Positions 17,806 to 28,355 are shown, numbered from the stretch's first letter. The stretch: DNA of 28,355 nt from a virus (IMGVR_UViG_3300035135_000697:1-28355); one strand, 5' to 3'. Numbers and translations: made by a program. The notes: generated by a model from the sequence alone, not told the origin.

Positions 17806-18783
17806 ATGTCAGATTTTATTGAAGCAAACTCGGATGAGATCATGCTGCGTAGCATGACCAATGTCTTCGTTGAGAAGAAGTTAGATCCTGTTGGAAAAGA
17901 GGACGCCGATATTGATAACGACGGCGATACTGATAAGAGCGATAAGTATCTGCACAATCGCCGTAAGGCAATTGGTGCTGCAATCGCTGCCGAGAAGGGC
18001 AAAAAGAAGGCAGTAAAGGAGGAGATGGAGGAGTATCTTCGTTCTAAGGTTGCTTCTATTAATGAAGGTGTAAAACTTCATAAGTCAGAGAAGGCAACGA
18101 CCTCTGATGAGAAGGCAGTAGAAATTGTTGAGAAGGAAGTTAAGAATAAGGTTACTGTTAACCCTGTCATGGGCGAGTCCGTCGCTTCCATGATCCAATC
18201 TATGTACGAGCGTAAGTACATGGGTGAAGGTCTGAAGCAGGCACGGAAGAATGTTGGTGCCTCTACTTGCTGGGATGGATACACGGCAAAGGGTACTAAG
18301 AAAAAGAACGGTAAGGAAGTTCCTAACTGTGTAAAGGAAGAGGATGAGCAAATTAATGAAGCGACTCCTGGTGAAAAAACCTTTGATAAAGCAACCAGCC
18401 CTGAACTTCAGAAAAAAACTCATAAAATGGGTACAGCCGTTGGACAAGGAGTGAAGGATCATATTGGTGGTCTTGCTCAAGGTGCTTTTGGTAAAAAAAC
18501 TAAGTCAAAAAATCCTGTAACTCAAGTTGGTAATGCAGTTACCAGAACTCTTAGTTCTCCCGCCAGAGCGGCTGCTGGTTATGCAACGGGACTTGTTAGA
18601 GGTCTTGCAAATTCTTACGAACCAGAAGGTAATCTGGTAGACGAAGAGTCTTGTGGTTCTGATAAGAAGATGAATATCAGAGGTTACAATTCTGATGAGC
18701 AGAAGAAGCGTCTTGAGAAAAAGCGTGGCATGAAACTGGATGATCATCCCCAATATAAAAAGGATGATACCGAAAAAAAGTAG
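17806..18783 (+). CDS. Late, highly charged modular protein (probable internal virion protein); 0-frame product
   Basis: K/E-rich; DIDNDGDTDKSD loop, CWDGY..VPNCV module, SYEPEG motif; late promoter. Confidence 0.8.
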   Translation: MSDFIEANSDEIMLRSMTNVFVEKKLDPVGKEDADIDNDGDTDKSDKYLHNRRKAIGAAIAAEKGKKKAVKEEMEEYLRSKVASINEGVKLHKSEKATTSDEKAVEIVEKEVKNKVTVNPVMGESVASMIQSMYERKYMGEGLKQARKNVGASTCWDGYTAKGTKKKNGKEVPNCVKEEDEQINEATPGEKTFDKATSPELQKKTHKMGTAVGQGVKDHIGGLAQGAFGKKTKSKNPVTQVGNAVTRTLSSPARAAAGYATGLVRGLANSYEPEGNLVDEESCGSDKKMNIRGYNSDEQKKRLEKKRGMKLDDHPQYKKDDTEKK

Positions 18784-18806
18784 AGTCCTCCTCACCAGAG
18801 GAGGGT
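18761..18806 (+). other. -1 programmed ribosomal frameshift signal
   Basis: AGGA (18761-64), A_AAA_AAG (18774-80) in the correct phase, TAG, hairpin CCTCCTC-ACCA-GAGGAGG (18787-18804). Confidence 0.75.
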
Positions 18807-19172
18807 AAAAATCTTTGGACTCGTCTTACTGAAGACAGAGCAGAAGATGCAAAAAAGTCTCTAGACAAAGTTAAGAAGCGTCAAAAGGTTCTTGATAAGT
18901 ATGAGAAAGAGACTGGTAGAAAACCAGACATCACTAAGTCTCCTGAGTATAAGCAACATAAGATGAGATTCCCTGGTGCCAAGCGCACTGGTAAGAAGAA
19001 GAAAGGTGAGAAGGAGACTGAACTGCAGCAGCATAACCGTAGGACTACTAGACATAATGAGAGACTTATGAAGCACGGTCCTACTAAAAAGGAGGCTGAG
19101 CGTCAGAAAGGTTACGATGCTTACGAGAAAAAGCACAAGTCAAAATACGGTAACAGATCTGTATGGGATTGA
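18780..19172 (+). CDS. -1 frame extension (130 aa, Lys/Arg-rich) of the 17806 protein
   Basis: Frame is open from just after TGA 18765-67 to 19172; first ATG only at 18963; composition matches the upstream ORF. Confidence 0.72.
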   Translation, partial: VESSSPEEGKNLWTRLTEDRAEDAKKSLDKVKKRQKVLDKYEKETGRKPDITKSPEYKQHKMRFPGAKRTGKKKKGEKETELQQHNRRTTRHNERLMKHGPTKKEAERQKGYDAYEKKHKSKYGNRSVWD

Positions 19173-19203
19173 GCCTATATAAATTAGGTTCAATATTAAA
19201 ATC

Positions 19204-19407
19204 ATGCTTGCATTTTTACTCCCCTTAGCATCTAAGGTAATTTCTGATGCAGTCTCAAAGATTCCAGAAAATGAAGAACTCGGTGAGAAACTCATTGAGA
19301 TCTGTCTTGTTATTCTTACTAAAGCAGTTAAGTTGACCAAGACTGATATGGATGATCAGCTCCTGGAGGTCGTTACTAAAGCGATCAAAAACCGCGAGGA
19401 TGCTTGA
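19204..19407 (+). CDS. Small late hypothetical protein
   Basis: 67 aa amphipathic; preceded by TATAAATT (19178-19185). Confidence 0.75.
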   Translation: MLAFLLPLASKVISDAVSKIPENEELGEKLIEICLVILTKAVKLTKTDMDDQLLEVVTKAIKNREDA

Positions 19408-20340: not shown

Positions 20341-20528
20341 TGGATAGAAGATTAGACAAAGTAGTTACACTGATTCGAGAGATGATGGGTGCTGGTGCTG
20401 TCGGTGGTCCTACCAATAGGATCGGCGGCGGGAAGATTGCTGGTACAAAAGAAGCTGGTGATGATCCACCAGTTCGTAAGAAGAAGAAATATATCTACCA
20501 AAGAAATACTCGCAAGAATTGGATGTAG
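20340..20528 (+). CDS. Small hypothetical protein (Gly-rich, basic tail)
   Basis: TGATG overlap with the upstream gene; fills the gap exactly. Confidence 0.65.
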   Translation: MDRRLDKVVTLIREMMGAGAVGGPTNRIGGGKIAGTKEAGDDPPVRKKKKYIYQRNTRKNWM

Positions 20529-20532
20529 GGGG

Positions 20533-20967
20533 ATGGCATTCGGATTAGGAAAACTTGCAGTATTAGAATCTAAACTTGACATCTACGAAGACTTGTCCAA
20601 AGAGATGTTGGATAAGTTAGAGAGAGCAGTAGGAACTATCTCTGATAATAGTAACAAGATTGCTATTATCTTGGAGCGTCATGAAAACAGATTAGATGAG
20701 AGTGAAAGAACTGATGATCTCATCATCAAAATGCTCGAAGAGATGAAAGAAAAGCATGAGAAGGATACTGAAACTATTCATGATAGGATTAGTGCCCTCC
20801 AGAAGAAAGTAGATATTAATGCTAAGTTTGTGATTGGTGCTGGTGCTGTTCTCGCTACTCTTGTGGCAGTATTACAAGTGGTTCCACCCATCATTGAAGT
20901 CTTGACACCGCCAGCAACTGCGAGTATAGTAGGTGCAGAGACGCCCTTCGTGAATGGATCTAATTGA
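20533..20967 (+). CDS. Coiled-coil protein with C-terminal transmembrane helix
   Basis: ATG 20533 after AGGGGG; heptad-like KLAVLESKL...; hydrophobic FVIGAGAVLATLVAVL. Confidence 0.75.
   Translation: MAFGLGKLAVLESKLDIYEDLSKEMLDKLERAVGTISDNSNKIAIILERHENRLDESERTDDLIIKMLEEMKEKHEKDTETIHDRISALQKKVDINAKFVIGAGAVLATLVAVLQVVPPIIEVLTPPATASIVGAETPFVNGSN
20902..20930 (+). promoter_or_regulatory. Sigma70 promoter for primase-nrdAB
   Basis: TTGACA-17 nt-TATAGT ending 23 nt before ATG 20954, embedded in the upstream CDS. Confidence 0.8.
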
Positions 20968-21922
20968 TTCCAAATATATTAGTTTAGTCTCTGCTCGCTT
21001 ACAGAAATTTAAAAGGGTTAAGTCGGATCTGTATAACTTCCGCTGCCCTATTTGTGGTGACTCGCAGAAGAACAAGAACAAGGCACGGGGATATCTCTAT
21101 GCCGTAAAGGCAAATACTAATTTTAAGTGCCACAACTGTGGTGCTTCGATGTCGTTCAACAATCTTTTGAAGAAGTTGGACTCATCTCTTCATGGAAGAT
21201 ATACCCTAGAGAAATATAAAACAGGTGTTACTGGCAAGAACTTTGTAGTAGAAGAACCTGAATTTGTTTTTGAGAAACCTAAGTTTGCACAGAAGATTAA
21301 TCTCCCCTCATGTAGTGAGGTAGAAGTTGCTAGAGTATATCTTGAGCAGCGTAAGATTGATCCTTCCAAATTTTATTTTGCAGAAAACTTTGATGAGTTT
21401 GTCAAGTCGTTTCCAGATGTAGACTACTCATACATGGGTAAAGAGTCTAGGATTATCATCCCACTCTTCTATGAGAAGTCTCTCGTCGGATTCCAAGCAA
21501 GGGCAATAGGTCCTAACAAGATAAAGTACATTACGGTAATGCTCAATGATAAAGCGCCCAAAATCTATGGACTTGATACGGTCAGAGGAGATGCTCCAGT
21601 CTATGTTACGGAGGGACCTTTCGACAGCACATTCGTTCCACATTCGATTGCTATGTGCGGAGCTGACGCTGATGTTGGTCGTTGGGGGATTAGCAATCCT
21701 GTCTATATCTACGATAACGAACCGCGCAATAGAGAGATTGTCAACAGAATCGGTCGTACAATCGATAGAGGCGACTCCCTAGTCATTTGGCCATCAGACA
21801 TTAAAGAAAAAGACATTAATGATATGGTCCTCGCTGGACATGATGTGGTTGGCGTGTTAAAATCGAATACATATTCAGGACTAGAAGCGAAGGTTAAGTT
21901 TACAGCATGGAAAAAAGTCTAG
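20954..21922 (+). CDS. gp61: DNA primase
   Basis: NFRCPICGDS...FKCHNC zinc domain, TEGPFDS, YDNEPRN, KDINDM (TOPRIM). Confidence 0.96.
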   Translation: MDLIDSKYISLVSARLQKFKRVKSDLYNFRCPICGDSQKNKNKARGYLYAVKANTNFKCHNCGASMSFNNLLKKLDSSLHGRYTLEKYKTGVTGKNFVVEEPEFVFEKPKFAQKINLPSCSEVEVARVYLEQRKIDPSKFYFAENFDEFVKSFPDVDYSYMGKESRIIIPLFYEKSLVGFQARAIGPNKIKYITVMLNDKAPKIYGLDTVRGDAPVYVTEGPFDSTFVPHSIAMCGADADVGRWGISNPVYIYDNEPRNREIVNRIGRTIDRGDSLVIWPSDIKEKDINDMVLAGHDVVGVLKSNTYSGLEAKVKFTAWKKV

Positions 21923-24727: not shown

Positions 24728-25895
24728 ACTTACCGACGAAAAAAAGAAGACCTCTGTAGAGGCAATGACTGTCTTCAATACAGACGCTGTAGATATTAAA
24801 AAACAACCTATGTTCTTCGGTGCCCCCTTGGGGGTACAGAGATATGACTCATATAAGTATCCAGTATTTGACAGACTGACCCAGAGTCAGTTAGGATACT
24901 TCTGGAGACCCGAAGAGGTGTCTCTGCAGAAGGATCGTTCTGACTACCATACACTTCGTCCTGAGCAGAAACATATCTTCACTAGTAACCTGAAGTATCA
25001 GGTTATGCTAGACTCTATCCAAGGTCGGGGACCAGGACTGTCTTTCACTCCTTACTGTTCCCTTCCTGAACTGGAAGCATGTATGAATGTGTGGCAGTTT
25101 ATGGAGATGATCCATAGTCGCTCGTATACATATATCATTAAAAATGTTTACAGTGATCCCTCAGAAGTCTTTGATACTATTATTGAGGACCAAAGAATTC
25201 TTGAGAGAGCAAGCGCCATTACTCAGGCATATGATGATTTCATCAATGCCGCACAAATGTATGGATCCAGCAACGATTGGATTCATGCACAAGAGGGCGC
25301 AGGGTATTTCAAAGAGAGCAGGTATGAACTCAAAAGAAAACTCTATCGTGCTGTCGCGAATGTCAACATCCTGGAAGGAATTAGATTCTATGTCTCCTTC
25401 GCGTGCTCGTTTGCTTTTGGCGAACTTAAGCTTATGGAAGGATCAGCAAAGATCATCAGCCTTATCGCCAGGGACGAGAATCAACATCTCGTAATCACTC
25501 AGAATATTCTCAACAACTGGGCAGCAGGAGATGATCCTGACATGCTGAAGATTGCTAAGGAAGAGGAAGAGTGGTTGTATCAGACATTTGATCAGGCAGT
25601 TCAGCAAGAGAAGCAGTGGGCAGAGTATCTGTTCAAAGATGGATCTATGATCGGTCTGAATGAAAAACTACTGTGCCAGTATGTTGAGTGGATCGCTAAT
25701 CGTCGTATGAAAGCGATTGGTCTTAAACCAGTTTATGATATCCCTGCAAAGAATAACCCACTACCTTGGACACAACACTGGATTTCTTCTAAGGGTCTGC
25801 AAGTTGCTCCCCAGGAGACTGAGGTTGAGTCCTACATTGTTGGTGGTATTAAGCAGGATGTAAAGAAAGACACTTTTGCAGGATTTGAATTATGA
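24711..25895 (+). CDS. nrdB: Class Ia ribonucleotide reductase beta subunit
   Basis: FWRPEEV, LDSIQGR, EMIHSRSY, LEGIRFYVSF, RDENQH, APQETE. Confidence 0.98.
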   Translation: MPVQFKLTDEKKKTSVEAMTVFNTDAVDIKKQPMFFGAPLGVQRYDSYKYPVFDRLTQSQLGYFWRPEEVSLQKDRSDYHTLRPEQKHIFTSNLKYQVMLDSIQGRGPGLSFTPYCSLPELEACMNVWQFMEMIHSRSYTYIIKNVYSDPSEVFDTIIEDQRILERASAITQAYDDFINAAQMYGSSNDWIHAQEGAGYFKESRYELKRKLYRAVANVNILEGIRFYVSFACSFAFGELKLMEGSAKIISLIARDENQHLVITQNILNNWAAGDDPDMLKIAKEEEEWLYQTFDQAVQQEKQWAEYLFKDGSMIGLNEKLLCQYVEWIANRRMKAIGLKPVYDIPAKNNPLPWTQHWISSKGLQVAPQETEVESYIVGGIKQDVKKDTFAGFEL

Positions 25896-26956: not shown

Positions 26957-28355
26957 ATGCTGCCTTCTGATATTTCTAAAATGGCACAGACCTTCAGCGA
27001 CATTGCTGAGGGTAAGCAAAAGGACGATTCGTATCTAGAGACAGATATGAAGAAGCGTCGTAAGAATAATGAAAAGGCTGTCGAAGACATGAAGAAAGTG
27101 AAGGACGATACTGTCCCTCGCTGGATGAGAGAGAAATTGGAACTTGTAATTAGCGAGTCCTTCTACTTCAAGAGACTCATGGTCTTGGATGAGGATCTGG
27201 CAGAAGCATATCTTGTAATCGCAGCAGAATGTGTTCTCAGAGGATATGAAAGTCCCAGACTTATCGATAACATCGCTGAGGCAATCGATAAAGATATTGT
27301 AGGTCACGATTTCCGTTCTGGATTATTTGCAGTCAATCCTAGACTTCATGAGAGTCGTGACGCAGCAGAGAAGCGTCAGGCAAGAGCTATCATTAATGAG
27401 GTAACACCTGCTCCTAAAACGAACAAGGAGACCGATCTTGCTTATAGATCTGGTAGAGCACTTACCAACATGGGTCGCGACCTTGTACAAGGTGTGGGTC
27501 AAAGTTTTTCAAATATGTTTCGGGGCAAGCGTGACACTCCTGAGAACAATCCTGCTGCTTATAGACAGCAGCGAAGACTCAATAACATTGGTAACTTCCT
27601 GAGAACAGGTCAAGTTCCTACCAATAACAGTTCTACAACTCGTGCATCTACTCCTGCTGCACAGCAACAGATTGATAAGAACTCCAAAGAACGCGCTACT
27701 AATAAAGATTACTTTGGTACTGGTGCAGGTAATCCAACAGCACCACCTGCTAAACCAGCACCACCTGCTGCAGCACCAGCAGCACCTGCAGCACCTGCAG
27801 CACCAGCAGCACCTGCAAGACCAGCGGCACCTGCTTCACCAGCACCTACTGCTGTATCGAGACCTGCAGCACCTAAAAAACCTAGCATCGATAGTTTAGT
27901 TAATAAAGAGTATGATCGATTAAGAAATCAACCTGGTGGAACGAAAGCAGGTGGTGCTGCAGAGAAGTTCGGTAAGGCTGTTTCCGCTGCAAAGTTTGGT
28001 AAGAACTTTGCAAAACCAAAGACTCCAAATCCTTTGATGTCTAAGACTTTCGATTCTTACGAACCAGAAGGCGAGACCATTGAAGAGAAGAAGAAAGGTC
28101 TCTGGGATAACATTCATGCTAAGCGTAAGCGTGGTGAGAAACCTGCCAAACCTGGTGATAAGGACTATCCCAAGACTCTCGATGTTGAGTCGGTAAGTTT
28201 CTATGACTGTGTTGTTGGATATCTCATCGAGAATGAGATGATCCAGACTGAGGATCAGGCACTGGTCATCATGGAAGAACTGACTGGCGAAGAGATCGCT
28301 TTCATTGTCGAAGCATATACCACTAAGCATGGTAAGAAGGCAATGGATTGGAATC
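26957..28355 (+). CDS. Large late modular protein (probable internal virion protein), runs off window; not in ORF track
   Basis: Hand translation is open for about 466 codons: MLPSDISKMAQTFSDIAEGKQKDDSYLETDMKKRR...PAAPAAP...SYEPEGETIEEKKKGLWDNIHAKRKRGEKPAKPGDKDYP... Confidence 0.88.
   Translation, partial: MLPSDISKMAQTFSDIAEGKQKDDSYLETDMKKRRKNNEKAVEDMKKVKDDTVPRWMREKLELVISESFYFKRLMVLDEDLAEAYLVIAAECVLRGYESPRLIDNIAEAIDKDIVGHDFRSGLFAVNPRLHESRDAAEKRQARAIINEVTPAPKTNKETDLAYRSGRALTNMGRDLVQGVGQSFSNMFRGKRDTPENNPAAYRQQRRLNNIGNFLRTGQVPTNNSSTTRASTPAAQQQIDKNSKERATNKDYFGTGAGNPTAPPAKPAPPAAAPAAPAAPAAPAAPARPAAPASPAPTAVSRPAAPKKPSIDSLVNKEYDRLRNQPGGTKAGGAAEKFGKAVSAAKFGKNFAKPKTPNPLMSKTFDSYEPEGETIEEKKKGLWDNIHAKRKRGEKPAKPGDKDYPKTLDVESVSFYDCVVGYLIENEMIQTEDQALVIMEELTGEEIAFIVEAYTTKHGKKAMDWN
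27740..27874 (+). repeat. Imperfect 9-bp tandem repeat (GCAGCACCW) encoding an Ala-Ala-Pro linker
   Basis: gcagcaccagcagcacctgcagcacctgcagcaccagcagcacct core inside the 26957 ORF. Confidence 0.85.

Follow-up and report, generated by a model that had tools for sequence, protein, structure and literature searches.

A candidate dnaX-type −1 programmed ribosomal frameshift between a mosaic protein and a start-less basic tail in a T4-like cyanomyovirus

In a 28,355-base IMG/VR record (IMGVR_UViG_3300035135_000697:1-28355; this whole stretch is referred to below as the window), a gene for a Lys/Glu-rich protein ends in a TAG stop codon, and a conserved basic module that has no start codon of its own continues in the −1 frame. 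The window is a fragment of a T4-like cyanomyovirus with a CheckV completeness of about 15%. The locus raises the question of how this module, here called the tail, comes to be translated behind the protein that precedes it, here called the body. Judging from its sequence, the site is probably a dnaX/IS3-type signal for programmed −1 ribosomal frameshifting. An earlier note on this DNA had proposed such a frameshift, and the proposal now draws support from the conservation of the start-less tail, from relatives that carry body and tail in one frame, from the recurrence of the signal in a diverged contig (L023), and from the shared [ST]EKK termini of related proteins.

The body is a 325-amino-acid (aa) open reading frame (ORF) on the + strand (17806..18783) whose last codons are ...ACC GAA AAA AAG TAG (protein end ...DDTEKK*). 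A slippery heptamer, A_AAA_AAG (18774..18780, + strand), is in phase with this 0 frame and conforms to X_XXY_YYZ; it overlaps a run of seven adenines (A7; 18773-18779, + strand), and the 0-frame stop TAG (18781..18783, + strand) lies directly 3′ of it. Nine nucleotides (nt) upstream of the heptamer is a Shine-Dalgarno (SD)-like AAGGA (18760..18764, + strand; AGGA at 18761-18764). On the 3′ side, behind a spacer of 5-6 nt, a hairpin is predicted (18786..18805, + strand) in which the arms CCUCCUC and GAGGAGG (CCTCCTC at 18787-18793 and GAGGAGG at 18798-18804 in the DNA) form seven Watson-Crick pairs around the loop ACCA, with one added U·G pair (18786-18805) and a predicted stability of −13.1 kcal/mol. 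The earlier note had described the in-phase heptamer at the end of the ORF, the AGGA at this distance, and the perfect 7-base-pair (bp) stem with its ACCA loop, all of which are present; of the two further G-U pairs that it allowed the stem, the fold clearly adds only one.

None of 200 shuffled sequences equaled the predicted stability of the hairpin, which ranks in the top 0.11% among all 28,315 28-nt windows of the sequence. A longer, 50-nt fold of the site is unremarkable (z −1.19; 22 of 200 shuffles equally stable). AAAAAAG occurs eight times on the + strand of the window, three times in phase with an ORF (18774, 18851, and 24740; phase assigned by hand). The heptamer alone is not unusual; the hairpin is. 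The two other in-phase heptamers lie inside the tail frame (18851-18857) and near the start of nrdB (24740-24746), and neither a downstream hairpin nor a long −1 ORF was noticed at either place. A role of the hairpin as a transcription terminator was considered and rejected, as the + strand has no U-run after the stem and the T7 run on the − strand lies 7 nt away from it. The sequence around the 3′ arm, CCAGAGGAGGGTAA (18795-18809), resembles CCAGGAGGGTAA (L001:2050-2075), which holds the SD and the stop at the coupled gp83/gp84 junction of S-BM1 and syn9. It is also similar to GAAGAAGGTAAGAAA, which encodes the EEGKK linker that precedes GLWDNIHAKR modules.

The −1 frame is closed by a TGA at 18765-67 and then remains open until the TGA at 19170-72. 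Its first ATG, GTG, or TTG is at 18963, which leaves 61 codons, counted from GTA at 18780, without a start codon; the earlier note had given the same limits and the same count. The −1 extension (18780..19172, + strand; 130 codons and TGA; VESSSPEEGKNLWTRLTEDRAEDAKK...SVWD) is basic and helical and represents the C-terminal module of the syn9 gp186 / phrog_1784 family. It matches phrog_1784 (syn9 gp186 / S-BM1 gp84, T4-GC_933) with an E value of 3e-22 over profile positions 105-216 of 218 and is that family's C-terminal module rather than a full member, the N-terminal half (MLSFK..., with the CxxC region) and the start codon being absent. Residues 18-61 of the tail make up a start-less conserved coding segment (18831..18962, + strand). 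Compared with its nearest homologue (L010), this segment has 12.5 synonymous and 8.5 nonsynonymous changes (dS 0.82, dN 0.084), and its ratio of nonsynonymous to synonymous rates (dN/dS) is 0.10, which indicates that it is evolving as translated sequence; the part of the tail after the internal Met has a similar dN/dS in the same comparison (0.09). Conserved as coding sequence but lacking a start codon of its own, the tail must owe its translation to initiation upstream.

An AlphaFold model of the tail has four helices (pLDDT 74.7, pTM 0.39). Foldseek found nothing for this model in the PDB at E ≤ 0.001, and the best score in the ESM Atlas was 0.76, to unnamed viral clusters. In Pfam, the sole match was one to AcrIC5 that is below threshold (18.3 bits against a cut-off of 27).

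The decisive result, at the level of sequence, is the conservation of the whole arrangement of heptamer, stop, and hairpin, hereafter the cassette, in the diverged L023. This 43.5-kb IMG/VR contig has the gene order of the window, with dS values of 0.66-1.49 between the flanking genes of the two. Its 181-aa ORF ends ACT GAA AAA AAG TAG, followed by AAA CCTCCTCT-ATTGA-AGAGGGGG, and the corresponding hairpin, CCUCCUCU-AUUGA-AGAGGGGG, has a predicted stability of −14.9 kcal/mol, with 1 of 200 shuffles as stable. The heptamer, the TAG, the length of the spacer, and the 5′ arm are common to both lineages, and a GAGGA stands upstream of the L023 heptamer at the same 9-nt distance as the AAGGA of the window. 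The hairpins, compared by hand, differ in the loop, in one U-A pair that becomes U-G, and in the weak basal U·G pair that becomes A-U. The modules on both sides of the cassette are different in the two lineages: the L023 body stops after ...NCVKEEETEKK, and its −1 frame, open for 217 codons of which the first 41 are without a start codon, encodes modules that are found in frame in S-MS29, P0039, P0041, and P0047 and ends in the basic tail ...KYDSARD. Thus, the slippery site, the stop, and the hairpin are kept in this homologue, as the earlier note would have them, but compensatory changes in the core stem, which it also looked for, are absent.

The same end point recurs among related proteins. 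In a library of 5.8 billion proteins, 9 of the 11 closest (P0013-P0021, 190-374 aa) end in [ST]EKK, as do 10 of 12 when the L023 ORF is included, and these termini stand behind at least five different upstream modules. The two exceptions are P0022, which ends otherwise, and P0023, which is an in-frame fusion. No read-through form of 455 aa was found in this library among the close relatives, and the [ST]EKK terminus occurs in none of the 32 more distant family proteins fetched. Pattern scans of IMG/VR for the cassette returned only the strain of the window and L023, the other 11 loci of one scan lying in unrelated contexts. Among GenBank phages, neither the cassette nor the close N-terminal clade turned up in any isolate in searches by blastn and tblastn, including one with a 96-nt cassette query.

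A further site was seen in two other IMG/VR contigs, L107 (1501-1560) and L112 (3300024518_002971 and 3300024520_000903). There, an unrelated phage ORF that is open for 141 aa and ends in ...EEHEKK also finishes with GAA AAA AAG TAG; CCTCC...GGAGG comes next, with 125 open codons in the −1 frame (VAFLRENVEAQFFFDM...). From its sequence, this may be a separate frameshift site.

Related phages join the two parts in other ways. Among 23 tblastn rows for the tail, in which some contigs are counted twice, 15 are stand-alone ORFs of 242-292 aa whose own start lies 115 or more codons upstream, 1 is an in-frame fusion (L025), 2 are cut by contig ends, and 5 are the window's own strain, the sole rows without a start. 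A scan of metagenomes gave at least four loci, those listed all being stand-alone gp186-like genes. The stand-alone tail gene is coupled to the gene upstream via GGAGGG and an overlapping TGATG. The body N-terminal domain and a tail of this type are in frame in the syntenic L024 (379 aa) and L025 (319 aa) and in proteins P0023-P0035; they are also in frame in P0092, whose last ~55 residues are identical to those of the tail in the window and end in ...RHNERLMKHGPTKKEAERQKGYDAYEKKHKSKYGNRSVWD. Comparison of these sequences indicates that body and tail belong on one polypeptide. With coupled genes, a single in-frame ORF, and the cassette all observed, there appear to be three ways of linking body and tail.

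In the proposed mechanism, the ribosome would decode ...GAA AAA AAG with UAG in the A site, while the hairpin 5-6 nt downstream stalls it. The tRNA-Lys would then slip back by one base (AAA AAG to AAA AAA), and reading would resume with GUA. The slow UAG in the A site and the hairpin, placed at the mRNA entrance, would promote slippage, and the AGGA upstream may contribute. In Escherichia coli, A_AAA_AAG is shifty because AAG is read by tRNA-Lys(UUU) only, there being no tRNA-Lys(CUU); no tRNA genes were found in the window. Two products are expected, the 325-aa body stopped at TAG and a 455-aa form with the 130-aa basic helical tail, and both lengths, which the earlier note had given, follow from the sequence. 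The junction of the long form would be ...DDTEKK-VESSSPEEGKNLW... (...DDTEKK-VESSSPEEGK...). The frameshift would serve to control what fraction of the molecules bears the tail, which presumably means a fixed ratio of the two forms and thereby a dosing of the basic module.

Any reading of the locus depends on the A7 run, since a true A8 would give one continuous ORF and make the frame break an assembly or sequencing error. Nothing beyond the general risk of homopolymers speaks for such an error. The A7, the TAG, and the hairpin are identical in three independent IMG/VR assemblies (the window and two from other metagenomes; 99.93-99.97% identity over 4-6 kb). Logan contigs of seven runs from six studies dated 2018-2025, among them X1, X3, X4, X5, X9, and X10, span the site with no insertion or deletion, and the heptamer is identical in all of them; run X2 has no cover at 18776-18821. 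Runs X3 and X5 each contain two alleles, and the variant allele, which differs at 18765 and 18768 (DD to EE), at 18794 (in the hairpin loop), and at 18811, 18815, and 18828, leaves the heptamer, the TAG, the spacer, and the stem arms unchanged. In this allele, one nucleotide is also missing at 18827 and a C is added after 18830, a compensating pair by which the tail frame is kept. No A8 form was seen in the assemblies or the bridging contigs; as contigs drop rare variants, a minority A8 could still exist. With A7 also present in L023 and nine database proteins stopping at the same place, an error is effectively refuted, and the A7 on which the earlier note had made its reading depend stands in the contigs examined.

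A real but fixed mutation is a more serious rival, although an improbable one. It would be a loss of one A from an A8 or an out-of-frame recombination joint in an A-rich linker, with the 325-aa protein as the sole product and a tail that decays. Indels arise in homopolymers, so that an A-run at the frame break is what a mutation would leave; the in-frame linker ...TEKKKGLW... does exist in P0036-P0038, and all DNA copies of the exact arrangement of the window belong to one strain. However, the same break is kept in L023 at a dS of 0.66-1.5 and in the termini of 10 of the 12 closest proteins behind different modules. The −1 ORFs of both lineages are intact, at 130 and 217 codons, and the dN/dS of 0.10 in the start-less segment is difficult to reconcile with decay. 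Furthermore, in both lineages the stop adjoins the heptamer, and a hairpin, in the window one of that top 0.11%, follows at the right spacing, and the library of 5.8 billion proteins holds no repaired read-through form among the close relatives. Slightly less probable again is transcriptional slippage, in which the RNA polymerase adds an extra A within the A7 so that a share of the mRNAs is in frame. It operates in Thermus dnaX and in some insertion sequence (IS) elements, it would yield the same protein (A8 reads ...EKKVESS...), and the A7 that it needs is present and conserved. Efficient transcriptional slippage usually requires runs of nine or more, and its known stimulatory hairpins lie upstream, in the nascent RNA. 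At this locus, the conserved structure is downstream, at the spacing of ribosomal frameshifting, and the phase of the heptamer and the adjacent stop are conserved as well.

It appears quite unlikely that the tail is translated independently, whether from ATG 18963 as a 69-aa peptide or by termination-reinitiation after the TAG with the GAGGAGG arm as ribosome-binding site. GAGGAGG is strongly SD-like, ATG 18963 exists, and the stand-alone homologues are coupled via GGAGGG and TGATG, all of which would suit independent translation. But the −1 frame has no ATG, GTG, or TTG between 18768 and 18963, no near-cognate start is shared in position by the window and L023, and no SD-like sequence precedes 18963. 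Moreover, purifying selection acts on the 44 conserved codons upstream of Met 18963, and this Met is replaced by Lys or Gln in syn9, S-MS29, and L012.

Several observations weigh against a programmed −1 frameshift. In-phase A_AAA_AAG is not avoided elsewhere in the genome, as its occurrences at 18851 and 24740 demonstrate. The upstream AGGA may be incidental to Lys/Glu linker codons (AAG GAx / GAG GAA), and purine runs like AAGGA and GAGGA are common in the Lys/Glu linkers of this protein family. The 3′ arm of the hairpin encodes the linker motif EEG, which is found before several modules in relatives, so that the arm may be conserved in part for the protein that it encodes. Cassette DNA is known from two lineages, the strain of the window and L023, the other eight members being known as protein termini. 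RNAalifold on the two sequences found no pair of the core stem changed on both sides; a MAFFT alignment of the two cassettes placed the gap due to loop length outside the loop. In an RNA-library run, X19, no contig covers the cassette, and just one was obtained, at 18906-19000. Finally, we infer both the occurrence of slippage and its frequency from the sequence evidence.

The E. coli dnaX (tau/gamma) signal consists of A_AAA_AAG, an SD-like element ~10 nt upstream, and a stem-loop ~6 nt downstream, and all three elements have counterparts at this site, the SD-like one possibly as a by-product of Lys/Glu linker codons. In dnaX, however, the shifted frame soon stops and gives a shorter product, whereas here it is the 0 frame that ends immediately, and shifting would add 130 aa; in addition, the gene is an unrelated phage mosaic protein, and its hairpin is shorter (7-8 bp). 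The orfA-orfB junctions of the IS3/IS911 family likewise have A_AAA_AAG or A_AAG with a downstream structure, a nearby 0-frame stop, and a fusion to a start-less ORF, but the window has neither a transposase nor inverted repeats at this place, which lies in a T4-like block of replication and virion genes. In the lambda G/GT tail chaperone and in T7 10A/10B, −1 slippage yields a short major product and a minor one extended at its C-terminus, as is envisaged here. The gene family here is nevertheless another one (syn9 gp185/gp186-like; phrog_4359/phrog_1784), and the heptamer and the genome position differ. The closest counterparts are syn9 gp185/gp186 and S-BM1 gp83/gp84 (T4-GC_715 / T4-GC_933), which have a homologous body N-terminus, a homologous basic tail, and the same genome position. 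There, the tail is a separate ORF of 242-292 aa with its own ATG or GTG, whereas in the window the N-terminal half of gp186 and the start are missing and the cassette makes the link. The type of signal is a textbook one; new are the gene and the group of viruses in which it is seen. A search of the literature on ribosomal frameshifting in cyanophages and Synechococcus phages, with a coverage that includes few subscription journals, found nothing on this gene.

It is conceivable, although we offer it as a tentative idea and think it doubtful as it stands, that the ~45-nt cassette of AGGA, A_AAA_AAG, TAG, and the hairpin of anti-SD-like CCUCCUC and SD-like GAGGAGG is a portable frameshift linker that recombination moves between the shuffled modules within a cyanomyovirus protein family. 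It would provide a third, tunable link between body and tail beside in-frame fusion and translational coupling and might be derived from the SD of an ancestral coupled junction (CCAGGAGGGTAA versus CCAGAGGAGGGTAA). If true, this would be the first description, for T4-like cyanophages, of a programmed frameshift in a gene other than a tail-chaperone or capsid gene. If the frameshift is real, then fusion, coupling, and frameshifting would be three interchangeable links of the same two parts within one abundant group of marine phages, and the cassette would offer a compact dnaX-like signal for cyanobacteria, in which recoding has been little studied. There is also a consequence for annotation: gene callers report here a 325-aa protein and, at most, a separate 69-aa ORF, so that the conserved tail is missed in cyanophage annotations. 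In the database, every one of P0013-P0021 ends at [ST]EKK.

The body is a short, mosaic, Lys/Glu-rich member of the syn9 gp185 / S-BM1 gp83 family (T4-GC_715 in the S-BM1 record), with profile matches to phrog_4359 (1e-32) and phrog_22379 (5e-27). It shares with gp185-like proteins the N-terminal motif KLDPVGKEDxDIDNDGD (KKLDPVGKEDADIDNDGD in the window) and the module KRLEKKRGMKLDDHPQYKK, after which dozens of phages carry a different module. The motif, the shuffled modules, and the place behind the cytidylyltransferase-like gene are all those of a gp185-like protein, and the synteny of the locus is shared with syn9, S-BM1, S-MS29, L023, and L024. A second paralogue of the mosaic family begins at 26957 on the + strand and runs off the end of the window (26957-28354); it carries ...SYEPEGETIEEKKKGLWDNIHAKRKRGEK and other shared modules.

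The body and ORF89 of phage S-SCSM1 have only a 26-aa DDHPQYKK module in common. The GenBank record of S-SCSM1 labels ORF89, ORF90, and the adjacent NMNAT-like protein as virion proteins; in the published report, 45 proteins are given as detected in purified S-SCSM1 virions by mass spectrometry, with NMNAT named among them (PMC9602691). The one shared 26-aa module is a weak lead that the protein of the window may be virion associated, and through that same weak link to the S-SCSM1 virions, the ratio of long to short form may matter for particle content.

The nearest GenBank relatives of the window are Kyanoviridae phages of Synechococcus and Prochlorococcus. The window contains a T4-type replication block (sliding clamp, clamp loader, RegA, Hsp20, DNA polymerase, UvsX, and gp41 helicase) together with genes for MazG, 2OG-Fe(II) oxygenases, a cytidylyltransferase/NMNAT-like protein, gp61 primase, and NrdA/B. 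The gene with the candidate frameshift sits between the cytidylyltransferase/NMNAT-like gene and small virion genes. A scan for bacterial genome contigs with the phage Hsp20 returned only L119, L120, and L121, from metagenome-assembled genomes titled Acidibacter, Psychromonas, and Actinomycetota, with copies 67-72% identical; these are probably phage contigs misbinned into bacterial genomes.

Two minor features were observed downstream of the body and tail. In the 31-nt gap between the stop of the tail and a gene for a 67-aa protein at 19204, the sequence TATAAATT (19178-19185) is similar to the T4 late-promoter box, TATAAATA. Further on, the profile phrog_451 (461 positions) is split between two ORFs that overlap by 14 nt in different frames: a DUF7201 ORF (20389-20967) matches positions 1-128, and the gp61 primase ORF (20954-21922) matches positions 131-461.

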